Origin: a virus
Taxonomy: Duplodnaviria; Caudoviricetes
Virus record (IMG/VR): IMGVR_UViG_3300005323_000071
Span: 1-37,721 of that record
Direction: 5' to 3' (one strand)
Length of the DNA stretch: 37,721 nucleotides
A program made the translations under genes and the position numbers. This document shows positions 5,798-35,751 of the stretch, one piece after another. Position 1 is the stretch's first letter. Each line of letters starts with the position of its first letter. Below the pieces are notes generated by a model. It ran no database searches, was not told the DNA's origin, and was given only the letters and a program-made list of their open reading frames with translations.

Positions 5798-5810
5798 ACA
5801 GATGAACAAC

Positions 5811-6140
5811 CGGGCCCGCGTCCATTCCGGAAGCATGACGCTCTCCCTCATCAGGAGCCGGGCCCATACCTCACATTACGGCGGATCCATCACTGTCGGG
5901 TGTGAGGACTGCATGAATCCCTAGGAAACAAATCAACTCCCGCCGGTATGCTACCGTGGAACCTCACAGCACGTTCCACCCGGCCTTCCCCTGTCATGGA
6001 TCAATGTATCGCTATAAGACCAAATACACCTGGATTCCACGCATGGCATTTGTCACCTTTGCCCTCTCTCATCTCACAGGATTGTGGCGTAAAAATGATC
6101 CGTTGTCGCGGATCGCTAAATTCAATATCTCCTGACAGGG
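5811..6140 (+). ncRNA. Candidate structured non-coding RNA
   Basis: No convincing ORF. Consecutive helices: 5812-18/5859-65, 5869-77/5899-5907, 5879-84/5893-98, 5942-46/5980-84, 5956-62/5973-79, 5989-96/6133-40, 6097-6102/6109-14. G-U pairs favour the + strand. Confidence 0.55.
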
Positions 6141-6151
6141 ACAGTATATTT

Positions 6152-6221
6152 GCAGCCTTCGTATAACGGTAGTACTTGCACAGCAATGTGATAGGATCCG
6201 GTTCAATTCCGGATGGCTGTT
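6152..6221 (+). tRNA. tRNA-like element / pseudo-tRNA with non-canonical anticodon arm
   Basis: Acceptor GCAGCCT/TGGCTGT, D arm GTAT-AACGGTA-GTAC, perfect T arm TCCGG-TTCAATT-CCGGA; the anticodon arm is CACA-GCAA-TGTG (tetraloop) and is 1-2 nt short. Confidence 0.75.
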
Positions 6222-6224
6222 TTC

Positions 6225-6404
6225 ATGAAAGCAATTTTCCCAAAAATAAAAGATGGCTTGGTAACGAGTATAAAATTAGCACCGTCAGGAGCGATCAAGT
6301 ATATCCACATCGAATGTTACGCGGATGAAGTAGATCTCAATGGATTGAACCTTGATAATGCAGCCGAGATCTCTTTGGCGCGGATCATAAAGTGGGAATC
6401 ATGA
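6225..6404 (+). CDS. Small hypothetical protein (59 aa)
   Basis: ATG 6225 lies 3 nt after the tRNA-like element; ATG 6213 falls inside that element, so it was not used. Confidence 0.6.
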   Translation: MKAIFPKIKDGLVTSIKLAPSGAIKYIHIECYADEVDLNGLNLDNAAEISLARIIKWES

Positions 6405-6496
6405 CCGCAAACTGCCAATCCTGCCGGTATGAAACAACCTGCCCGGGACTATTCAAGCAGAAACAACAGCAGAAGGCACCGAATCTACCGTCATAG
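6401..6496 (+). CDS. Possible 31-aa Cys microprotein
   Basis: MTANCQSCRYETTCPGLFKQKQQQKAPNLPS; ATGA coupled; its stop is the TAG of the first array unit. Confidence 0.4.
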   Translation: MTANCQSCRYETTCPGLFKQKQQQKAPNLPS

Positions 6497-7022
6497 ATGT
6501 AAAATCTATCAATAAAGAACCCCTATAATCAATCTAAAAGCAGATGATTGTAGATAATTAATCTACCTCAATGGAATATTTATAATGTCATCTACTGATA
6601 GATGATCATAGATCAACCATCTACCCCAAAATATTCTATATAACTCATATTTTAATATACGATAATAGATAAAATATCTACGCTCAAAGATTCTATATAT
6701 CAGATATTACAATAAATGGTTGTAGATAAAATATCTATAACAAAAGATTTCGTATATCTCATCTATCATATGGTAACGATAGATGCGGTACCTATCCAAA
6801 GAGATTTCCTATATTCAATATTTTTGTATACGGTCATAGATGAAATATCTACTTGGGAAGATTTAATATATCTGATATTGTAATAGATGGTCATAGATGC
6901 CCAACCTATCTCAAAAGATTCTGCATATTCGATCTATCGTATGATGATAATAGATGCAGTATCTACCGCCGGAAATTTGGTATAATTGGTCTGTAAAATG
7001 GTCGAATTAGATTTAAAATCTA
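6494..7022. repeat. Non-coding tandem array, 10 units, 57-bp period, anchored by the TAGAT-N5-ATCTA palindrome
   Basis: TAGAT starts at 6494, 6551, 6609, 6666, 6723, 6780, 6837, 6894, 6951, 7008 (spacings all 57 except one of 58), each followed 5 nt later by ATCTA or ACCTA. Confidence 0.95.
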
Positions 7023-7045
7023 CCTTAATAGACGTTAAAACGCCA

Positions 7046-7207
7046 ATGAAGGCAGGCCCAACCCTCAGCGATGCCAAGGGCGCGAAGCGGATCCGGAAAC
7101 TACAGGACTCGGTGCTGAACTTGCAGATGCAGGTACTAGAGAAACTGGATTGCATCGCAGTAATGGAGCACGAGATTAAGGTAATGCGGGAAAGCAAAGC
7201 GGAGTGA
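7046..7207 (+). CDS. Small coiled-coil protein
   Basis: MKAGPTLSD...; heptad-like IRKLQDSVLNLQMQVLEKL; start uncertain. Confidence 0.55.
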   Translation: MKAGPTLSDAKGAKRIRKLQDSVLNLQMQVLEKLDCIAVMEHEIKVMRESKAE

Positions 7208-7211
7208 GAGG

Positions 7212-7694
7212 ATGCCAAGAGTCTGCACTATCTGCGCACACAAGGATCGAAACAAGATCGATTCAGCCATCGCCGTTGATGGTGCGATATTACGCACAAT
7301 AGCGCACCAATACGACTTATCAGAAAGTGCATTAAAACGGCATGTAAAGAACAATCACGTTTCTGAACAGATAGCGAAGGCAGAGCACATCAATGAGGTC
7401 ATCCATGCTGATGGAGTGCTCACCGAAATGGGGAGGATCAAAAAGGAAACGTGGCTTATCCATAAAGAATGCAGAGAACGGAAACGAAAAGACAAAGAGG
7501 GCAAGGAGTCAAACGATCCGGACAATGAACTGGCATTAAAGGCACTCGCTCGGCTAGAGAAACAACTGGAGATCGAAAGCAAGGTTTTGGGGGTTGTCAA
7601 GGATCCCCCTCAAAATAGCCCCGTAACTGTGAACCTCAATATTGCCGAGGAGGTGAAGAAACTTGTCGGAATCCTGCCCGCTGTTAAAACCTGA
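7212..7694 (+). CDS. terS: Terminase small subunit (N-terminal CxxC-H plus HTH)
   Basis: MPRVCTICAH...LRTIAHQYDLSESALKRH HTH, helical core, position immediately before TerL. Confidence 0.75.
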   Translation: MPRVCTICAHKDRNKIDSAIAVDGAILRTIAHQYDLSESALKRHVKNNHVSEQIAKAEHINEVIHADGVLTEMGRIKKETWLIHKECRERKRKDKEGKESNDPDNELALKALARLEKQLEIESKVLGVVKDPPQNSPVTVNLNIAEEVKKLVGILPAVKT

Positions 7695-7704
7695 ACAGGA
7701 GCCG

Positions 7705-8979
7705 ATGGTTACCCGATACCTCCAGACTGTGAGGTTTAATAAGTATATCCCGCACGAACCCACAGAAAAGCAGGCGCTCTTTCTCCTGCATGATCATATT
7801 CCAGAGATCCTTTACGGCGGATCAGCGGGCGGGGGGAAATCCGATGCCCTCTTAATGGCAGCTCTTCAATATGTCCATGTTCCAGGGTATGCCGCTCTGT
7901 TATTGCGTCGTACTTTCCCGGATCTCTCTCTCCCTGAAGCCATCATGAGCCGGTCCTTTGAGTGGCTGCAAAACACCGATGCACACTGGCACGACAAGGA
8001 AAAGACCTGGAACTTCCCGAGCGGGGCAACTCTTACCTTTGGATATCTTGATGCACCACGGGATCACTATCGGTATCAAGGATCCGCGTTTCAATATATC
8101 GGCTTCGATGAATTGACCCAGTTTAAGGAGAACCAGTACCTTTACCTCCATTCGCGGTTGCGGAGGCTGTCGGGCTCTGATGTTCCGTTAAGGATGCGGG
8201 CAGCCAGTAACCCGGGTGATATCGGGCACGAGTGGGTAAAGGCTCGGTTCATCACATCAGCGCAGAACACCGAGAGGATGTTTATCCCGGCATCGCTGGA
8301 CGATAACCCGCACCTGGACCGGGAATCCTATATTCAATCGTTGATGAAACTAGATCCGATCACCCGGGAGCAGTTATTATCTGGTAACTGGGATGTCCGG
8401 CCCGAAGGCGGACTATTTAAACGGGAATGGTTGAAACTCACCGATGCAGTACCCCGAAACATGCCGCTATGCCGGTACTGGGATAAAGCGGCGACGGAAG
8501 GTGGGGGGGATTGGACCGCCGGGGCATTGGTTGGCATCGATCACGGCAGGGTCTATGTGCTGGATGTCAAACGCACCCAGAGCCGGCCGGCTGGAGTTGA
8601 GGCGCTGATCTATCAGACCGCTCAGCTGGACGGCCCTGAGGTGATGATACGCATGGAGCAGGAGCCCGGCAGCGCAGGAGTGGACGTGATCGACCATTAC
8701 GCCCGGCAGGTGCTGGTAGGCTATAACTTCAAGGGCATCAAGAGCACGGGCAGCAAAGTGAGCCGGGCAGCGGCATTAAGCACAGCAGCAGAGCAGGGCA
8801 ATCTATTCATTTTGCACGGGCAGTTTACAGGGGCACTTATGGACGAACTGGCATTATTTCCAACAGAAGGAGCACATGATGATCAGGTCGATGCAGTCAG
8901 CGGCGGGTATAACGCCCTGGCATTGCGGGCAAATGGAGGATTCCGGGCAGCCGGGAGAAAGATGGAGAGTAAGACATGA
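7705..8979 (+). CDS. terL: Terminase large subunit
   Basis: Walker A YGGSAGGGKS, Walker B IGFDELTQF, ASNPG coupling motif, RNase H-like YWD...D and HDDQVDA; start ATG 7705 after AGGAG. Confidence 0.96.
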   Translation: MVTRYLQTVRFNKYIPHEPTEKQALFLLHDHIPEILYGGSAGGGKSDALLMAALQYVHVPGYAALLLRRTFPDLSLPEAIMSRSFEWLQNTDAHWHDKEKTWNFPSGATLTFGYLDAPRDHYRYQGSAFQYIGFDELTQFKENQYLYLHSRLRRLSGSDVPLRMRAASNPGDIGHEWVKARFITSAQNTERMFIPASLDDNPHLDRESYIQSLMKLDPITREQLLSGNWDVRPEGGLFKREWLKLTDAVPRNMPLCRYWDKAATEGGGDWTAGALVGIDHGRVYVLDVKRTQSRPAGVEALIYQTAQLDGPEVMIRMEQEPGSAGVDVIDHYARQVLVGYNFKGIKSTGSKVSRAAALSTAAEQGNLFILHGQFTGALMDELALFPTEGAHDDQVDAVSGGYNALALRANGGFRAAGRKMESKT

Positions 8980-19544: not shown

Positions 19545-20829
19545 TCAAGTCGTTGGTAATCTCTGGGTGGTTCTGAATCTTGAAACCGGTGGGCTGGATT
19601 CAGGTGTCACAAAGGCACAGGCTACGCTCAAATCGTTCGGGGTTGAAGTTGACAAAGATACCCTGAGCATGATTAAGATGGGGGCACAGATGGCCGCAAC
19701 AGCCGGAGCTGCTGCCCTTGTCATTAATGAGATGAACAAAGCAGCGCAGGCAGCGGCCCGTTACGGGGATGAGTTGCACGATCTTTCCCTCACAACGCTC
19801 ATGTCTGAAAAGTCACTTCAGCGGCTCCAATATGCCACAAATGCGACCGGCGGAGATTTCAGATCGCTCGCTGGGTCGATCACATTTTTGGGTAAAAATC
19901 TTGAGAATGCAAAGGATCCAACCTCAACCCAAGCCGAAGCACTTAAACGGCTCGGAATAAACGCGGTTGGTGCTCATGGAAGCATCCAGGATATGGATAC
20001 GCTGCTCCCAAAAATCATTGATAAATTGCATAATATGAGGGATAGTACCGAGAGGGCTCACCTTATGATGCAGCTCTTCGGGAGGAATACCGGCGAGGTT
20101 GCAAAACTGGTAGAACTCGGATCGGCGGGTGTTGCAGCATACGGGGACGAGGCGGAACGGTTGGGGCTGCTCCTATCTCCGGAACAACTCGCACAGCAAC
20201 AGGCATTTAACGATTCGTGGGCACAGATGAACACGCAGATCAATATGTTGTATCTCCAACTCGGAACGAGCCTGATCCCAGTTATGCAACAGGTAACATC
20301 GGTTTTTGAGGAGTGGTTGCCGGCAATATCGGCAGCAGCAGCAGCAATCGGCGATTTGATCAATCTTGCAGTAGCGGCACAAGCATATATGAGCTTACTT
20401 AGAGTTGACACCTACACCGAAGCACTCACTACCGGATCGATTGAACCGATCACCAGTGCAGCGGAAGCAGGGGAGGCCGCGATGTCCCGTGTCGGATCGA
20501 GTAAGAGTTCCATCGCATCGTCTGTAAAATCCACGCTTTCTCCAAGCAAACAATTGTATTATTCCCGTCACCCAGACAAAGCATCAGCCGCCGGGATCCC
20601 GGGATATGCAGAGGGAGGTCTGATCACAAAACCAACGCTCGCCACATTCGCAGAGAACGAGCCAGAATATGCGATCCCAATGTCAAAGATGGGGAGCATT
20701 GGCAGAAAAACGATCATCATCAATCAGAACAACCAGATCAAAACAGGTCTCAATGCCTCTGAGACACGAGCGATTTTAAAGGCAAATGACCGTCACCTAG
20801 CCAACAAATTCAATATGATGGGGGCCTGA
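19528..20829 (+). CDS. Tape measure protein (short, 433 aa)
   Basis: VGNLWVVLNL start, Ala-rich helices, QLFGR, C-terminal IPGYAEGGLITKPTLA..AENEPEYAIP. Confidence 0.9.
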   Translation: MMGVTDQVVGNLWVVLNLETGGLDSGVTKAQATLKSFGVEVDKDTLSMIKMGAQMAATAGAAALVINEMNKAAQAAARYGDELHDLSLTTLMSEKSLQRLQYATNATGGDFRSLAGSITFLGKNLENAKDPTSTQAEALKRLGINAVGAHGSIQDMDTLLPKIIDKLHNMRDSTERAHLMMQLFGRNTGEVAKLVELGSAGVAAYGDEAERLGLLLSPEQLAQQQAFNDSWAQMNTQINMLYLQLGTSLIPVMQQVTSVFEEWLPAISAAAAAIGDLINLAVAAQAYMSLLRVDTYTEALTTGSIEPITSAAEAGEAAMSRVGSSKSSIASSVKSTLSPSKQLYYSRHPDKASAAGIPGYAEGGLITKPTLATFAENEPEYAIPMSKMGSIGRKTIIINQNNQIKTGLNASETRAILKANDRHLANKFNMMGA

Positions 20830-21714: not shown

Positions 21715-22992
21715 ATGGAGTTTGACGGGCAGGCATTCGGGCAGGTGGCGTTTGATCGGTCAGAGGATACCGTAGCCGATCCTCTTTACCTCCCTTATTT
21801 CGTTCCGCCGCCGGTTGAATATTATCCACTTAGGGTCTTTGATTCCTCCCTTGAACCAGTATGTGAGGTCACTGATTACGTATCGGGTCAATGGATAAGG
21901 CGATGGAGAACTGCCGGGGAATTCTCCTTTGACATTCCGATGGATTCCTCCAGTATGGACAACATCGATGAAAACACATGGATATCGCTATTCCGGGGGG
22001 GTGTTGCCAGGATCGGGCGGGTTCAGCGGATGAGCATCGATATCTCAACCGGTGCCGATGAGGAGCCGCTGTGGACCATTGCCGGCAACGATGCAAAGGG
22101 ATTACTGATGGACAATCAGGTATTGGCCGGCATCTCAGCGGGAACCGGGTACGACACGGTAACGGCAACACCTGCGGAAACGGCCTGCCGTCACTACATT
22201 GATGTGAACTGCATCACCCCCCTGAATCCAGCGGGCACGAGCGATACAGCACGGAAGATCTCAATCCTTGAACTGGAAGCCGATGGAGCCCTTGGGGGGA
22301 ATGTCACCTATTCGGCACGGCTTGAAGCGAACGTTCACGACCTCATAGAGACGTTGCTGCTCGCATCCCCCAATTCTCTTGGGTATGAAATGTTGTTCAT
22401 CCGCGATCTGGACACTCCCGCGGATAGCAGGATCCGGCCACATTTCAAAGTCGGGGTTGACCGTTCTGCAACGATCGGATTCTCAAACGGATCGGGCAAC
22501 ATTTCAGATATGCAGTATTCGTACGACGATACGAGTTTTAGAAACGTTGCGTACGTTGGCGATAGTGGGGAGGATGCGGCCCGGACATTCACCAAAGTTT
22601 TTACAGGGACTGAGCCGGTATGGCCCAACCGAAGAGAAACGTACGTTGACGGCAACGATTGCACCGACGCAACCGAACTTATCCAAGCGGGTACCGTGGA
22701 GCTGGCAAATCTCTCAAGCGATGAAACCGCAGAGTTCGGCACCGTCAGAAACAATATGTTCGGGTATATGACCAAGAACGCTGCCGGAGCGTGGGATCTC
22801 GGCGATAAAGTCACGGTGATCTATTCCGGCGTGATCTCGGCAGTCGCCCCAATTATCGAAGTGCAGGAGAATTACGGTGTTGAGGGTATTGGGGAAAGTA
22901 TCGTCCCGGTCATCGGCGGGAAAAGCACAGGGGATACGGCAAAGATTATGCGGCAGATTGCAAAACGGGCAAGTATCAGGAGCAGAGTATGA
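21715..22992 (+). CDS. Baseplate hub / Tal-like protein
   Basis: W.RRW.TAGEFSF, NVAYVG, RRETYVD, WDLGDKVTV; follows Dit. Confidence 0.85.
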   Translation: MEFDGQAFGQVAFDRSEDTVADPLYLPYFVPPPVEYYPLRVFDSSLEPVCEVTDYVSGQWIRRWRTAGEFSFDIPMDSSSMDNIDENTWISLFRGGVARIGRVQRMSIDISTGADEEPLWTIAGNDAKGLLMDNQVLAGISAGTGYDTVTATPAETACRHYIDVNCITPLNPAGTSDTARKISILELEADGALGGNVTYSARLEANVHDLIETLLLASPNSLGYEMLFIRDLDTPADSRIRPHFKVGVDRSATIGFSNGSGNISDMQYSYDDTSFRNVAYVGDSGEDAARTFTKVFTGTEPVWPNRRETYVDGNDCTDATELIQAGTVELANLSSDETAEFGTVRNNMFGYMTKNAAGAWDLGDKVTVIYSGVISAVAPIIEVQENYGVEGIGESIVPVIGGKSTGDTAKIMRQIAKRASIRSRV

Positions 22993-24047
22993 CGGCAACA
23001 GACGAATTTTATTCGGGGACAGCAACCGATCCGAGGACGTATCACGGGTCCGATTGGGCACGATGGTTCAGATCGCAGTTCACAAGCGGAATAGTGTACG
23101 GCAACCCGATTGGAACATGCGCAGCATCTCAATACGGCACAGGAGATATGAAGGTGAACGTTGCGCCCGGCTCCGTTTGGGCGTATGGGTACAATGCCCT
23201 GATCGATGCCGTAGAGGTTGCCACAATTACGGCGAACACATCGGGGAATCCCCGCATTGATCGCGTGGTGGCCCGGAACACGATTGCATCTGGCATCACG
23301 ATCCATGTAATCCCCGGAACCCCGGCAGCGTCTCCAGTTGCCCCGGACCTCGTTACCGATGGTGTCACTTATTACGATGTGCCGCTTGCATGGATTGAGG
23401 TTGCAAATGGTGCCACAAAAATCTATACTGACGATATCCACGATGAGCGGATCTATTCAACCCTGAAAAATATTGATTTTGCTTCTATCCTGATCGACGG
23501 GAACTTGGATGCCGGCGGGAATAAGATCACTGAGTTAGGCGACGGGGTCGGGGTGCATGACCTTATCAATAAGGGGCAATGCGACGCGGGCGCAACCTTC
23601 GCAGATGTTCCGCAGGGATCGGTCGTTGTATTCGGCACGACAACAGTACCTGCGGGATTCCTGCTTTGCAACGGAGCATCATACCTACGGACGGATTACC
23701 CGGCACTGTTCTCAGCTATCGGTGTTCTGCACGGGTCTGCCGATTCAACACATTTTAACGTGCCAAATATGACTGGCAGGATCCCAGTGGGGCACGATCC
23801 GCTCGATGCTGATTTTGCAACAGTAGGTTTAACCGGGGGGGCTACAACCGTAACTGTAACGGAGGCAAATTTACCTCCGCACGTGCACACTGGGATAAAG
23901 ACGGCGACAAATCAGGTCACTAGAGGGGGAAGCAAAACTTCGATTACTGCCGGCCCAGTATCGGGCACGACCGGATCAACCGGCGGAGGGGGAGCTCACG
24001 CAAACATGGGGCCTGCAATAACGATGGCATATGGGATTAAGGTGTAA
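22989..24047 (+). CDS. Tail fibre/baseplate protein 1 (baseplate-attachment N-domain + tail collar domain)
   Basis: PRIDRVVAR; VPAGFLLCNGASY.R.DYPALF.AIG...FNVPN; PPHVH; HANMGP. Confidence 0.85.
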   Translation: MTATDEFYSGTATDPRTYHGSDWARWFRSQFTSGIVYGNPIGTCAASQYGTGDMKVNVAPGSVWAYGYNALIDAVEVATITANTSGNPRIDRVVARNTIASGITIHVIPGTPAASPVAPDLVTDGVTYYDVPLAWIEVANGATKIYTDDIHDERIYSTLKNIDFASILIDGNLDAGGNKITELGDGVGVHDLINKGQCDAGATFADVPQGSVVVFGTTTVPAGFLLCNGASYLRTDYPALFSAIGVLHGSADSTHFNVPNMTGRIPVGHDPLDADFATVGLTGGATTVTVTEANLPPHVHTGIKTATNQVTRGGSKTSITAGPVSGTTGSTGGGGAHANMGPAITMAYGIKV

Positions 24048-24049
24048 TC

Positions 24050-25129
24050 ATGGCGGGTGAAAGCGGATTTTTTGGGAATGCAACCGATATAAGATATTAC
24101 ACTCAAATTGCAATGCACCGGTTTGTGATGGACTATCGTCGCAATGGGTATGTGAGCGGAGTTGGATCGGAGCTGGCAGTTATCCAGCACAGCACCGGAG
24201 ATATGAGCGTCGATATCGGATCCGGGGAGTGCTGGATCCAGGGATGCCACCACGCTGATGGCGTCGCGATTAATCTGGAAATTGCTGCAGCTCACGCAAC
24301 ACTCGGACGCATCGATCGCGTAGTGATGCGAAATACCATCGTTGGGACACGAAAGATCGAGCCGGTGGTAATAACAGGCACTGCTGCAAGTTCTCCGGTC
24401 GCGCCTGATTATACACGAAATACGGAGGTTCACGATCTCCTCATTGCAGACATTACTGTTGGTGCCGGAGTTACGCAGATCCTCACGGCCAACATTACAG
24501 ATCAGAGGGCAAATACAACGTACTGCGGGGTTGCGGCCCCGCTGTATTCCCGGATGTCTGATATGTGCCCGGTTGATGCCCCTGACATGAACTCCTACAG
24601 GATCACCGGATCGGCGGATCCTACTTCAGGAACTGATGGGGTGACAGTTGCGCACCGGACGAGCGTTGCCTATAACGTCCCTACCGGAGTACCGATCTGG
24701 TACGCAGGTGCAGCAGTTCCCGATGGGTATCTGGAATGTAACGGTCAATCAGTACTTAGGGCCACATACCCCTATCTTTTTGCTGCGATTGGCGTGACAT
24801 TTGGATCTATCGATTCCTTGCATTTTACCCTACCCGATGGACGCGGCAGAACCATCATAGGGTATGATTCCACACAAACCGAATTTAACGCGATCGGTGA
24901 GACGGGCGGGGAGAAAACACACGCACTTGTAGAAGCCGAAATCCCAGAGCACCTTCACGACGGGGTTATTTCGGCAGCGTCTTTAGTTACATCCAGTATG
25001 CAGTACGAGCCGTATGTGGACTTACCTGTTGCAATTACCGACGCCTCAACCGGATCGGCCGGATCCGGAACTGGGCATAACAACCTCCAGCCGTTTTTGG
25101 TGCTTAAACTTATAGTGCGAGGTGCATAA
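24050..25129 (+). CDS. Tail fibre/baseplate protein 2 (paralog)
   Basis: GRIDRVVMR; VPDGYLECNGQ...YPYLFAAIG...FTLPD.RGR; PEHLH; HNNLQP. Confidence 0.85.
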   Translation: MAGESGFFGNATDIRYYTQIAMHRFVMDYRRNGYVSGVGSELAVIQHSTGDMSVDIGSGECWIQGCHHADGVAINLEIAAAHATLGRIDRVVMRNTIVGTRKIEPVVITGTAASSPVAPDYTRNTEVHDLLIADITVGAGVTQILTANITDQRANTTYCGVAAPLYSRMSDMCPVDAPDMNSYRITGSADPTSGTDGVTVAHRTSVAYNVPTGVPIWYAGAAVPDGYLECNGQSVLRATYPYLFAAIGVTFGSIDSLHFTLPDGRGRTIIGYDSTQTEFNAIGETGGEKTHALVEAEIPEHLHDGVISAASLVTSSMQYEPYVDLPVAITDASTGSAGSGTGHNNLQPFLVLKLIVRGA

Positions 25130-26163
25130 TGGCAATTACAAACGCAATATACGACGCAGTACCGTGCACGCAGGAGAATCTGGCCCGTATGTTTACGTCA
25201 TATCTTGGATCGGGGTACATCTCAGATTACGGAAGCGAACTCGAAATAGTGCCGGCCGATCCGGCAGGAATGAAAATTATCGTTTCTGACGGTAGAGCAC
25301 GTGTAAACGGGTATTGGTATATGGAAGACGATGAATATGAACTACCTATATCAGCAAATACCACCGGATCAACCCGATATGATCGCGTGATTTTGAGGCT
25401 TGAAGAAACAACGCCCGGGCAATTATCGCCGCGTATCCTCGAAGGTACTACCGGATCTGGTCTCCCGGCGCTCGCAGTTGACGGCACCGAGATATCTCTT
25501 GCATCGATCGCGGTCGCTCCGAGTGCATCAACTATAACCGCTGGAGTAATTACTGACGAACGCTCAGATTATGCACTGTGCGGAATTGCCGGAGTAAAAC
25601 CGTTTAAATTCTCGGAAACTGTCGTCAACGCAAATCTCCCCCTTGCGGGATTCAAGGCAGTAAATATTGGCACCCCTTCAGCAGCAGGAGATGCCACAAC
25701 CCTCACGTACTTCAATACGAAATTATCCGGGGGAAAATTCGGATCGGCTCCCACTATGATATTGCCTTGGATCGGTGCCGCGGCCCCTGCTGGCTGGCTG
25801 CTCTGTAACGGTCAATCATTATCAACATCTGCATACCCGGGTTTGTTCGCGCAAATGGGGTACGCGTTCGGAGGATCGGGGGGGTCGTTCAATCTCCCGA
25901 ATCCTGCTGGAAGAATGATGTTAGGCGCTACGTCATCGCTTGGGGTTACGTCCGGTGCAAATACCGTGACGCTTGATACGACAATGATCGCATCACACGC
26001 TCACCCAAAATGTGGTGCAGTTACAGTTCTCTCTCCAAGTTCAGGAGGAGGAACAGAAGCAATATCGGCGACTTCTGGAAACACCGCAAATACAGGCGGA
26101 GGAGGGGCGCATAACAACCTTCAGCCTTACATCACACTAACATGGATCGTATGGGGGTCCTGA
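25129..26163 (+). CDS. Tail fibre/baseplate protein 3 (paralog)
   Basis: TRYDRVILR; APAGWLLCNGQ...YPGLF..MG...FNLPN; SHAH; HNNLQP. Confidence 0.85.
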   Translation: MAITNAIYDAVPCTQENLARMFTSYLGSGYISDYGSELEIVPADPAGMKIIVSDGRARVNGYWYMEDDEYELPISANTTGSTRYDRVILRLEETTPGQLSPRILEGTTGSGLPALAVDGTEISLASIAVAPSASTITAGVITDERSDYALCGIAGVKPFKFSETVVNANLPLAGFKAVNIGTPSAAGDATTLTYFNTKLSGGKFGSAPTMILPWIGAAAPAGWLLCNGQSLSTSAYPGLFAQMGYAFGGSGGSFNLPNPAGRMMLGATSSLGVTSGANTVTLDTTMIASHAHPKCGAVTVLSPSSGGGTEAISATSGNTANTGGGGAHNNLQPYITLTWIVWGS

Positions 26164-26165
26164 TC

Positions 26166-27443
26166 ATGGTATTCGGATACACCTTATATTCACCAAATCC
26201 CGGGAGTCCGGCAGCGCACCTTGCAGCGCCAATCTCGGCTATTGATGTTACAATGACGTTGGATGACGCATCGGACCAGCTTTCAGCGCCAGGAGAATTT
26301 ACCATCGGAACCGGGGAGAACTCAGAGACGGTAATCTATACCTCGTTGGTTGGCAATGTTGTCTCTGGAATGTCCAGGGGGCAGGGAGGTACAACAGCGG
26401 CACCGTGGGGTCTTGGTACTGAGGTTAAGCGCGGATTTACGGCGTATGATATGTTCGCTATCCTGGAACGGCTCGTAAGCGTTGATTCTGATGGGGTGGC
26501 CGGGCCAGCGTCATCGGTTGACGGACATGCTGCGGTATTTGATGGGCCCGGGGGGCATATTATCAAGGACGGCGGAGCGTTGCCAGTTGTTGCGACATCG
26601 GTACCACTTGTTGACGGAACAGCGGCGATCGGCGCCTCCGGCAAGTGGGCCGATGGGGCACACGTTCACCCGACAAACGCCCTGCTTGCCACTAAGGTAG
26701 AGGTTGCCCTGAAGGCGCCGCTCGCTTCACCGGCTCTCATAGGCACACCCACTGCCCCAGAAGCGGCAGCGGGAACGGATACTGATCAGATCGCTACGTG
26801 CTCCTTTGTGCAAAACCTCATCTCATATATTGATTCCCTGACGTACAAAGGCGTGATTGACTGCTCCCCCAATCCCAATTACCCTGCCGCGGATGCCGGT
26901 GACGTGTATATCGTTTCCGCAGCCGGGAAGATCGGGGGAGCCAGCGGGAAGACAGTATCAATCGGGGATACCCTGTTGTGCAACCATGATGGTTCAGCGT
27001 CTGGGGATGAAGCGACCGTCGGGACGTACTGGAACGCGATCGCGTCAAACGTCTCGTTCGGGGTCTGGATGGCTTCAACCATCACCCCTACATGGTCAGA
27101 AGGTACGCCAGATCTCGCATCGCCCATTGTTGCCAGGCACGTCAGGAACGGCAACGTCGTAACCTTCGCAATGACATTCAACATCTCGGACGGGCACGAT
27201 GCGGTGCTGGATTCCATCTCTCTCCCGGTTGCCGCCACCCAGATCGCGGGGCATCAGGTGCCGCTCACGGCGTTCAAGATGTACACCGATGGCACTGGGG
27301 ATTCAACCTTATCGGATCCCCAAGCATACATTGATTACAATGAGGCAACGCCATTGATCAAGTTCCGTGCCGTTGGCGGAGGATATCCAGCGGATTGCTC
27401 AGCGGTCCTGAACATATCAGGAAGCTATGGAGATTTATCATGA
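26166..27443 (+). CDS. Tail fibre / receptor-binding protein
   Basis: RGQGGTTA..W N-domain; fibre repeat LKAPLASPALIGTPTAP......QIAT..FV; LTYKG..D segment; C-terminal beta head (RNGNVVT...SLPV...ISGSY). Confidence 0.82.
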   Translation: MVFGYTLYSPNPGSPAAHLAAPISAIDVTMTLDDASDQLSAPGEFTIGTGENSETVIYTSLVGNVVSGMSRGQGGTTAAPWGLGTEVKRGFTAYDMFAILERLVSVDSDGVAGPASSVDGHAAVFDGPGGHIIKDGGALPVVATSVPLVDGTAAIGASGKWADGAHVHPTNALLATKVEVALKAPLASPALIGTPTAPEAAAGTDTDQIATCSFVQNLISYIDSLTYKGVIDCSPNPNYPAADAGDVYIVSAAGKIGGASGKTVSIGDTLLCNHDGSASGDEATVGTYWNAIASNVSFGVWMASTITPTWSEGTPDLASPIVARHVRNGNVVTFAMTFNISDGHDAVLDSISLPVAATQIAGHQVPLTAFKMYTDGTGDSTLSDPQAYIDYNEATPLIKFRAVGGGYPADCSAVLNISGSYGDLS

Positions 27444-29053
27444 AACAGACTTACAAACTAATGATCGCGCTCCTCCTGCTCGGAGTGTGTATCGGGGCGG
27501 TTCAGGCGACGGAGTATTCGCGGATTATTCCGTTGATGACATCAAATACCGCCCCAACCGGTAATAGTTCCTATGTGAACAACATCACGGCGGCAGCGGA
27601 TGCTTATTTCTTATACGATGGATCAACGGCTACGGAACTGTTACTTTCTGCAATCTCCCCAACATTCCTGCCGATTATCACAGGCATCAATACCTCGTAT
27701 TATTCCATCGCTCACCGATACGCGATATATCCGTATCAGGCGGGAACCATATTTACCCCGCAGAGTTGGACGTTCGAGGGGTCTGTCGATAACATCAATT
27801 ATGACGTTCTCGACACTCATACCGACTATGGGGCGTGGGTTGGATCGCAGTACACGAATTTTACGATATCAAATACCGTCCCTTACAAATCATACCGGTT
27901 GGTAATTACCAAAATTGGTGTTGATAACCCGACATTTGACATCAAAGAAGTTGTGGTTTATGGCGAATACCTATCTCTCCCAGTGTCGTCATTTTCATCG
28001 ACAAATGTAACTCCGGTTACCAATTCAACAGGAAGTTCATGGGGCGGCGTTGGATCGGTGCAGATGCAGTTCAACGATACGTCAACCAACAGCCCGACAT
28101 CGTGGGCATGGGGAGTTAACGACGTTACCGGGAATAATACGTGGGTACCGTTAGGGACTACGAGAGACACCACTCCAACTTTCGGAGTTGGAAACTGGTC
28201 GATCAATCTTACGGCAACAAATGAGGTAGGTTCTGATATCAGCGATCAGATCACATTTGTAAACGTAAGCAGCTCACCCACACCAACAGTCTCATTTGCG
28301 GCAACCCCGACAACGGGAGTCAATCCCATGACCGTTGAGTTCAATGACACAACAACTTCGACAAGTGCGATCACATCCTATAATGTCTCGTTCGGTACGG
28401 GGGAGTGGTGGAACGAAACCACATTCCCTGGAACTAACATTACTCACGCCTACTCCACGTCAGGGAATTACACCGTCGATTGGTATGTCAGCAATGCAGA
28501 GGGCACCGGTACTGCGAGCACTACGATCACGGTATGGGGCGCTGTGCATTCTGCATTCTCGTTGTTCAATACAGACGGCACAGCCCCGCACACCACATAC
28601 CTCTACGACACCAGCACGAACCTGACACCCGGGCCGGTAACCTACCTCACTGATTTTGGAGAGGGGAATACCTCAACATTGGCAAATACGTACTTCACAT
28701 GGAACGCCACAGGAACCTATAACGTGACGCATACCGTGAGCAACGGGCTATCCTCCGAGACATCGTTTATGAATGTCACCGTGGGAACGCCAACGCCGCC
28801 GGTAGTTGCTCCGGTCGCATCGTTCTACGGCAGCCCTACCGCTGGCAACGTGCCGCTCACTGTGTCCTTCACGGACGTATCGAGCAACACCCCGACATCG
28901 TGGTTCTGGGAGTTCGGAGATGGGACCAACAGCACATTGCAGAACCCATCGCACCAATACAACCGTTCGGGATTCAAGACGGTGAACCTTACTGCGGCGA
29001 ACTCGGCAGGATCGAATATCACGGTGCGGCTGAAGTTTGTAAGAGTGAGTTAA
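27440..29053 (+). CDS. Secreted discoidin (F5/8C)-like + four PKD-like domain glycoprotein
   Basis: Signal peptide MKQTYKLMIALLLLGVCIGAVQA; PQSWTFEGS.D...YKSYRLVIT; PKD signature PVASF..SPT.G.VPLTVSFTD.S...PTSW.WEFGDG..ST.QNP.H.Y. Confidence 0.88.
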   Translation: MKQTYKLMIALLLLGVCIGAVQATEYSRIIPLMTSNTAPTGNSSYVNNITAAADAYFLYDGSTATELLLSAISPTFLPIITGINTSYYSIAHRYAIYPYQAGTIFTPQSWTFEGSVDNINYDVLDTHTDYGAWVGSQYTNFTISNTVPYKSYRLVITKIGVDNPTFDIKEVVVYGEYLSLPVSSFSSTNVTPVTNSTGSSWGGVGSVQMQFNDTSTNSPTSWAWGVNDVTGNNTWVPLGTTRDTTPTFGVGNWSINLTATNEVGSDISDQITFVNVSSSPTPTVSFAATPTTGVNPMTVEFNDTTTSTSAITSYNVSFGTGEWWNETTFPGTNITHAYSTSGNYTVDWYVSNAEGTGTASTTITVWGAVHSAFSLFNTDGTAPHTTYLYDTSTNLTPGPVTYLTDFGEGNTSTLANTYFTWNATGTYNVTHTVSNGLSSETSFMNVTVGTPTPPVVAPVASFYGSPTAGNVPLTVSFTDVSSNTPTSWFWEFGDGTNSTLQNPSHQYNRSGFKTVNLTAANSAGSNITVRLKFVRVS

Positions 29054-35346: not shown

Positions 35347-35368
35347 TCCCATTTGGGATACTTTTTTT
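35346..35368 (+). terminator. Hairpin plus T7 terminator
   Basis: ATCCC-ATTT-GGGAT followed by AC-TTTTTTT. Confidence 0.65.
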
Positions 35369-35372
35369 CTCA

Positions 35373-35691
35373 ATCATTAGTACATCAATGTCCTATTATT
35401 TCCTAATTATTTCACGTCAGAGCATCAGACGGTAATTATCCATACATGTATGGATAGATAATATCCGTAAGAGGGATCTTTTCCCGTTCGCTAACGCTCC
35501 TATTAAAAAATGTTATAAAAAACGCTCATTGTCATTTTGTCTTTATTACTATATATAGTTTTATAATTTGATTTCAAGACCGCTAAAAATGAGGGAGATC
35601 ACAATTAATTATCCATACATGTATGGATAGATAAGGACGGGGGTTATGAGGTGAAAAATTATCAGATCATTAGTACATCAATGTCCTATTA
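35373..35691. repeat. A-B-B-A perfect direct repeats around an AT-rich core (origin/operator candidate)
   Basis: A = ATCATTAGTACATCAATGTCCTATTA (35373-35398, 35666-35691); B = TAATTATCCATACATGTATGGATAGATAA (35433-35461, 35606-35634), containing a perfect 20-bp palindrome. Confidence 0.9.
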
Positions 35692-35751
35692 GGTAACTAT
35701 AAATAGTCAAAATAACTATAATAAAAATATATGAAGCAGAAACGAGAACCA

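Follow-up and report, generated by a model that had tools for sequence, protein, structure and literature searches.

A phased 57-bp repeat array in a siphovirus of a presumed methanogen: a possible duplex DNA platform for a sequence-specific binding protein

The locus described here raises the question of what a strictly phased, gene-free array of 57-bp repeats does in the genome of a tailed virus. The window, i.e. the whole stretch of 37,721 nt that was analysed, represents a near-complete siphovirus genome (CheckV, 93%), and the overlap of the contig ends (1-59 and 37663-37721) by 59 nt with three differences also places the genome close to completeness. Its gene set includes terL, a portal, an HK97-type capsid, tail genes, RecT and an MT-A70 methylase, and is transcribed almost wholly from the plus strand. 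At 22989-29053, a tandem set of three tail-collar paralogues precedes a tail fibre and a PKD-repeat adhesin, and no tyrosine integrase was detected in the virus or in four related records. The host is, on indirect grounds, likely to be a Methanomicrobia archaeon, i.e. a methane producer, since all seven capsid matches among phage records belong to haloarchaeal tailed viruses, six of the nine matches of the PKD protein among plasmids come from Methanosarcinales, and the named PKD homologues include those of Methanoregula and Methanosarcina, along with some bacteria. An AT-rich, gene-free gap at ~35350-35740, in which a 20-bp palindrome occurs twice (35437 and 35610) together with a repeated 25-mer, is the probable replication origin; G046 and G047 carry different repeats at the matching position.

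The array lies near the likely small terminase gene terS (7212..7694, plus strand), which was assigned from its position before terL and from HTH-like and terminase-like Atlas neighbours, the family search having returned nothing above the cut-off. The large terminase gene terL (7663..8979, plus strand) matches Pfam Terminase_6N and Terminase_6C and PHROG 979. In the original prediction the array was placed just upstream of terS; the proximity holds, but a conserved 53-aa gene (7046..7207, plus strand), which forms the right flank of a variable slot, stands between the two. Nor is the left neighbour the 59-aa gene named there (6225..6404, plus strand, no family match), which is not array-specific, its 3' end being present also in the array-less relative L007. 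It is a small Cys-rich ORF of 31 aa (6401..6496, plus strand) that abuts the left end and runs into the array, its stop codon being the TAG of the first dyad. Further upstream, a tRNA-like cloverleaf was noticed at 6152-6222 (plus strand, fold z -2.7), which is missed by ARAGORN and is 96% identical in L271; the same region holds a tRNA-Gln in L271 and a tRNA-Ser in L273, and on these grounds the stretch before the array appears to be a small non-coding RNA cluster. The block at 5802-6157, without a clear gene and 77-85% conserved in L267, L268 and L269, is a candidate late promoter or structured RNA. Upstream of terL in L007, L011, L012 and L018, near-identical TerL proteins are paired with two unrelated types of TerS, often preceded by ParB-like and methylase genes, which indicates that exchange of TerS proceeds independently of TerL. 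In L011 (1061-3637) and L012 (121-3021), a Ser/Thr/Ala-rich protein of 858-966 aa with repeats of ~20 aa is encoded a few genes before terS; the periodic signals of both loci were considered as kin of the array and rejected as coding repeats.

The whole cassette (6482..7034) consists of nine full 57-bp units with partial ends, and has a GC content of 29% vs ~52% for the genome. Its edges are the points where homology to array-less relatives ends (~6482-6487 and ~7045-7055). Unit positions 1-15 are occupied by a dyad, TAGAT-N5-A(T/C)CTA, ten copies of which, perfect or nearly so, were located by pattern match within 6494..7022, starting at 6494, 6551, 6609, 6666, 6723, 6780, 6837, 6894, 6951 and 7008. 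They are the only ones in the window; shuffled windows contain a mean of 0.035 (maximum 1 in 200) and shuffled arrays a mean of 0.003 (maximum 1 in 5,000). The period is 57, with a single 1-nt insertion in unit 2 (near 6587), and the autocorrelation amounts to 0.54 at lag 57 and to at most 0.35 at lags other than its multiples, while the information per column peaks at a period of 9.5. The original prediction was thus exact as to the position of the dyads, the 57-bp phasing with one 1-bp indel and the ~9.5-bp spacing of the conserved blocks; the extent that it gave, 6494..7022, suits the dyads, but the element reaches from ~6482 to ~7034 and bears an extra inverted half-site at each end. The left one, ATCTA (6483..6487, minus strand), is opposite in orientation to its counterpart in the internal units, the right one reads TAGAC (7029..7033, plus strand), and the ends roughly mirror each other (ATCTA-N6-dyad ... 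dyad-N6-TAGAC).

The consensus of the unit is TAGATgaa.tATCTAcc.caAAGATT...TATAtt..ATcT.t.aatagATGaT.a., with a mean unit identity of 59%. As many as 15 of the 57 columns are invariant over the nine units, vs a mean of 4.6 (maximum 12) in 2,000 simulations of even divergence at matched identity, and the 21 columns classed as variable are near saturation, being 32% identical vs 27% expected from composition. The array is under patchy, position-specific constraint. Besides the dyad, a half-site model trained on the dyads finds four weaker TAGAT-like half-sites (W-A-K-A-T) per unit (6515..7002, mixed strands), at unit positions 22-26, 31-35 and 48-52 forward and 39-43 reverse; the sites that the model picks next after the dyad are 48 and 22 forward and 39 reverse, followed by 31 forward, which is tied with 30 reverse. 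The centres of the half-sites step by 9, 10, 10, 11, 9 and then 8 bp. On both strands, T1A and G3T account for most departures from TAGAT, and the same G-to-T change is tolerated on opposite strands (h3, h4 and h6 forward, h5 reverse). In total, ten dyads and ~38 weaker half-sites were counted, and elsewhere in the genome there is one near-site with at most one mismatch, at 20400, inside a gene. A strict parse into 7-bp heptads was rejected (spectral power 213 at 9.5 vs 33 at 7.1), and neither intrinsic curvature nor a histone-type AA/TT/TA periodicity of 10-10.5 bp was found in the array.

Comparison with relatives revealed the same slot with other contents. Not one of 17 related virus records, two of them at least 90% complete, carries even a single dyad, and the unit-profile score does not exceed 3.5 in the 32 stretches scanned, vs 22-43 for the real units in leave-one-out scoring. 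L007, the TerL of which is 94% identical, matches 6349-6481 at 97% and 7060-7193 at 90%, and between these flanks has 236 nt with a 54-aa ORF and no array. The Cys-rich ORF starts from the same ATG in both and is 45 aa long in L007 vs 31 aa here; the array truncates this upstream gene, which is longer in relatives. The array is likewise missing from all nine loci with the 53-aa gene. Seven of these have at least 350 nt upstream (six distinct, L268 being equal to L269 there) and carry assorted small ORFs in the slot; L274 and L275 are too short or rearranged for its content to be judged. In environmental runs the flanks are deeply covered, and Logan contigs join them across the slot with other letters (X1, X3, X4, X6, X9), array-less slots having been counted by such joining contigs and not by missing cover over the array (X3, X4, X6-X9). 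Judging from the ORFs of the relatives and the matching edges, the array is one allele of a hypervariable accessory slot, of which the repeats are the sole content. The identity of the flanks does not date the insertion, since flanks may be homogenised by recombination, while the near saturation of the variable columns suggests that the array probably evolved on another replicon.

The array recurs, in whole or in part, in other assemblies. A Logan contig from run X1 covers 6200-7133 with 0 differences; this excludes an assembly error, yet with X1 as a possible source sample it does not amount to an independent occurrence. In X5, a wastewater run from another study, a contig holds 158 nt of the array (6698-6855) with three differences, two of which were located, at 6729 in a variable column and at 6791 towards the consensus. 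Despite its RNA-Seq label, this run is flagged as probable DNA and was not taken as evidence of transcription. JGI metagenomes yielded two loci, the window's own contig (L145) and L146, which are 100% identical.

Collections of viral, metagenome, prokaryote-genome, phage and plasmid sequences yielded no homologue of the array beyond this virus, the host genomes, in which the natural sites of a titrated regulator should lie, being covered by one strict 19-letter pattern. Of the IMG/VR pattern searches, one gave six loci without a homologue and another gave none; with two further patterns the best unit score was 16.6, with no flanking units, among 120 of ~2,600 and 120 of ~320 matches listed, and a further pattern gave 70 loci, the 3-unit sums of which were all negative. 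The strict 19-letter pattern hit 67 loci in GTDB genomes, each an isolated single match, and the matches that blastn produced against phages and plasmids covered at most 7% of the query. Across four Methanosarcinales plasmids and Blf4, one lone dyad was counted in total (control 8), none of them having more than one; Blf4 itself, an isolated Methanomicrobiales siphovirus, has no dyad, and no such array is mentioned in the accessible text of its description (PMC8540584). A tandem repeat of near-identical, AT-rich 57-bp units was observed at the contig end of L425 (19% GC) and is unrelated by profile. In the literature searched, mostly open papers and with the supplementary TIGR and VIPR catalogues outside the scope, no description of the motif or of the array was met with. 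As far as these searches reach, the array is undescribed.

The symmetric half-sites on both strands, the same tolerated changes, the near-helical spacing and the rigid unit length argue for read-out of the array as duplex DNA, and it is probable that the reader is a protein that nucleates on the dyad and spreads to the weaker half-sites, whether the array serves as a decoy, persists as a relic or acts as an operator. As to its role, we tentatively favour a double-stranded DNA loading platform which would titrate a protein that binds DNA sequence-specifically and belongs to the host or to a rival mobile element. A binder from outside the virus is suggested by the cassette without a gene, by the lack of another good site in the genome and by the slot itself, which houses accessory genes in relatives; no partner gene of a known family was found in the cassette (Pfam and PHROG, 62 ORFs). 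According to the proposed mechanism, a dimeric or oligomeric protein would nucleate on each perfect TAGAT-N5-ATCTA dyad, and binding would extend cooperatively over the flanking half-sites ~10 bp apart. Six half-sites would span ~54 bp, those at 50-81 lying within 17 degrees of one helical face, while the outer two would drift by 50-70 degrees before the 8-bp step resets the phase; this reset is proposed as the reason why unit length is held tighter than sequence. The array would have evolved elsewhere and entered via module exchange between the conserved flanks, and each replicated genome would then add ~58 half-sites, pulling the protein off its normal targets.

Several observations count against titration. 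No second, diverged array was found, so that the constraint on spacing is read from one array; the half-site spacings within dyads vary (N5, N6, N3, N4) and would be unreadable by one rigid dimer; 57 bp correspond to 5.4 helical turns, which puts successive units on different faces; and a minus-strand G-U bias gives a weak hint of RNA. Moreover, the decoy step is wholly a deduction and the binder hypothetical, and the same picture would be expected from a passenger relic or an operator. The more far-reaching proposal, that of a stand-alone decoy cassette which is swapped like a gene by archaeal viruses and disarms a host regulator or defence protein by replication alone, seems rather doubtful, and less likely is its alternative version, repeat RNAs of a new class whose units have six conserved blocks each. 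If true, a purely cis-acting, swappable DNA sponge in a methanogen virus would represent a new kind of accessory module; to our knowledge, nearly all counter-measures of viruses take the form of proteins or RNAs. Naming the binder would give a DNA-binding protein together with its motif in a poorly studied group, and even if it is only a captured relic, the array documents a 57-bp nucleoprotein architecture, hitherto undescribed, of some methanogen replicon.

Such a passenger relic would be an array of iteron, centromere or origin type that was taken up from the host, a plasmid or another virus, and that is idle here, having acquired its form through protein binding at its source. This explanation is unlikely, though the anatomy would be identical to that of a titrating platform, the units diverged long ago and the occurrence of the array in this group of viruses is sporadic. 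The TP228 parH centromere likewise consists of degenerate short boxes and variable spacers (PMC3130281). What weakens this explanation is that the cassette edges are the array edges, with no other captured DNA, that a near-identical piece persists in the sample of another study (X5), and that no donor was found among four Methanosarcinales plasmids, Blf4 and the plasmids and phages searched by blastn. The original prediction had offered an iteron- or centromere-like polymerisation site as one of its three alternatives. A protein-binding or polymerisation platform indeed fits best, but a partition or replication partner was not found, ParA (PF13614) being detected in none of five records (the virus and four relatives; controls 14/14), and the probable origin lies at ~35350-35740.

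Just as unlikely is a template for 57-nt repeat RNAs, most likely of the minus strand, which would act as a protein sponge, a pseudo-antitoxin or a discontinuous guide. The original prediction noted that most departures from the perfect stem become G-U pairs on the minus strand; this applies to six of the eight non-Watson-Crick stem positions, vs one of eight on the plus strand, but G-T in unit 5 and T-C in unit 10 break the pairing. The bias reaches about p 0.06 with units that are not independent, and since these share ancestry it is a weak hint. The whole array folds better than its dinucleotide shuffles (z -3.3 minus, -2.6 plus), as would be expected of any palindrome-rich sequence, yet the gain is gone against column shuffles that preserve the motifs (z 0.09 plus, -0.20 minus). 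No excess of covarying pairs was seen (5 vs 5.9; 15 vs 12.8), and the RNAalifold consensus is a single hairpin of 5-6 bp per unit. The alternation of fixed and variable blocks recalls VIPR and TIGR, but CCA/UG boxes, 8-12-nt spacers and GGY/NN units are missing, no Nop or RAMP gene was matched among the 62 ORFs (Pfam, PHROG), and no Rfam family reached the cut-off within the array. A gapped search with the 26 variable letters, run VIPR-style (skips of 0-5 or full-length) over both strands of 1.7 Mb of related viral DNA, stayed at chance level, with a best match of 17-20/26 and shuffles reaching up to 22. These results tell against the repeat RNA or guide proposed in the original prediction: the fold equals that of column shuffles, covariation is not in excess, related viruses offer no gapped target, and Nop and RAMP genes were not found. 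No sequencing run on record as RNA was listed as containing the array, a result without bearing on its expression.

A lineage-specific operator or enhancer of the downstream terminase-structural operon, bound by a protein of the virus itself, appears improbable. The array does precede terS by 178 nt, transcription of the genome is almost wholly from the plus strand, and for some small ORFs (e.g. 35855) tblastn gives no counterpart in four related genomes. Yet the only other site with at most one mismatch falls within a gene (20400), the three columns before TATA are variable with no conserved TTTAWATA-type box, and relatives have the same run of genes without the array. More improbable still is a pac platform wrapped by a TerS ring. 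In its favour, terS is close by, several HTH motifs are displayed by TerS rings (PMC4737164), and a circular or permuted genome would be consistent with the 59-nt overlap between the contig ends. Against it stands the lack of the array in homologous viruses, which the original prediction itself had named as a refuting condition: dyads occur in 0/17 records, and the array is missing in relatives with 94-95% identical TerL (L007, L018) as well as in those with 62-67% identical TerS (L013 and L016, upstream stretches of 427 and 1,898 nt). Furthermore, the 53-aa gene separates it from terS, AA/TT periodicity at 10-10.5 bp is lacking, and accessory ORFs are not what one would expect to replace an indispensable cis site. 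This explanation is kept among the rivals since the nearest homologues of TerS share only 62-70% identity with it. That the array is a neutral satellite or the decayed remains of a 19-codon coding repeat is largely refuted and scarcely credible, for although 57 nt make 19 codons, one stretch of 55 aa is open (6716-6883) and pN/pS is 0.59-1.0 across frames, each of the six frames contains 6-20 stops, at least as many as in column shuffles, identity is even across codon positions (0.57-0.62) with third positions often invariant and not relaxed, in line with the non-coding nature originally asserted, and the patchy conservation rejects even neutral drift.

How, then, does an array which would be read as duplex DNA by a spreading protein compare with known systems? 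As originally stated, it does not resemble CRISPR, having neither near-identical repeats of 23-50 nt nor unique spacers of 26-50 nt. Type III antitoxins and pseudo-ToxI repeats are pseudoknot-forming RNAs with conserved pairing; here, no Rfam match and no excess of covarying column pairs were found, with folding tools that do not model pseudoknots. TIGR arrays, as described in PMC12045711, have CCA (box C) and UG (box D) elements, two spacers of 8-12 nt and a Nop-domain Tas gene, and share with the array the viral tandem arrangement, the fixed unit length, the alternation of conserved and variable blocks and the 5-15 units (PMC12045711; 10.64898/2026.09.09.750476). Unlike them, the array lacks CCA/UG boxes, no Nop-domain gene was found, its variable blocks measure 3-7 nt, and there are six conserved blocks per unit. 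VIPR vrRNA (10.64898/2026.04.26.720920) is made of GGY/NN pentamer repeats accompanied by a RAMP-like Vipr gene, and also alternates short conserved motifs with short variable ones in viruses. The array, in contrast, is not GGY/NN, steps by 9.5 nt vs 5 nt, and is palindromic and two-stranded, and neither a RAMP gene among the 62 ORFs nor a gapped target in the related viral DNA was found. The intergenic repeats of halovirus HF2 (58 and 29 bp), dispersed promoters that are conserved genus-wide according to PMC8707807, are similar in unit length, have AT-rich motifs and likewise belong to an archaeal tailed virus. They differ in that the array is tandem, lineage-specific and without a conserved TATA box.

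Further parallels are offered by DNA sites. The pac regions of SPP1/P22-type phages lie in or abut terS; AT-rich repeats near terS are a shared feature, but the array is not conserved in close relatives, does not abut terS and shows no 10.5-bp A-tract phasing. The boxes of Lrp/AsnC-family proteins (Ss-LrpB, Ptr2) are 15-bp dyads of 5-5-5 design. The array resembles them in its 15-bp dyad with a mostly A/T-rich 5-bp centre and in a second, weaker dyad-like site (22-26 and 32-36) 21 bp on, but has a different half-site and ten copies vs 2-3, and no Lrp gene was found in the virus. Among plasmids, the omega heptads of pSM19035 are a centromere-type array. Plasmid centromere and iteron arrays such as parH/ParG (PMC3130281) have degenerate boxes, variable spacers and mixed orientations, and spacing matters more in them than spacer sequence; the array agrees on all these points, and cooperative coating is the mode of binding that is likewise suggested for it. 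Degenerate boxes at conserved spacing, which are characteristic of centromeres, are present. A type I centromere would be accompanied by adjacent genes for a ParA ATPase and a centromere-binding protein, whereas no partition family occurs among the 62 ORFs, and an iteron origin by a Rep gene or an AT-rich unwinding element at the origin of the replicon; no Rep match lies nearby, the probable origin being instead at ~35350-35740. The array would thus seem most like centromere/iteron arrays such as parH, without belonging to them for want of the partner genes, and it is set apart from them by a 57-bp higher-order unit, a nucleating dyad, a length of ~550 bp and a place in an accessory slot of a virus.
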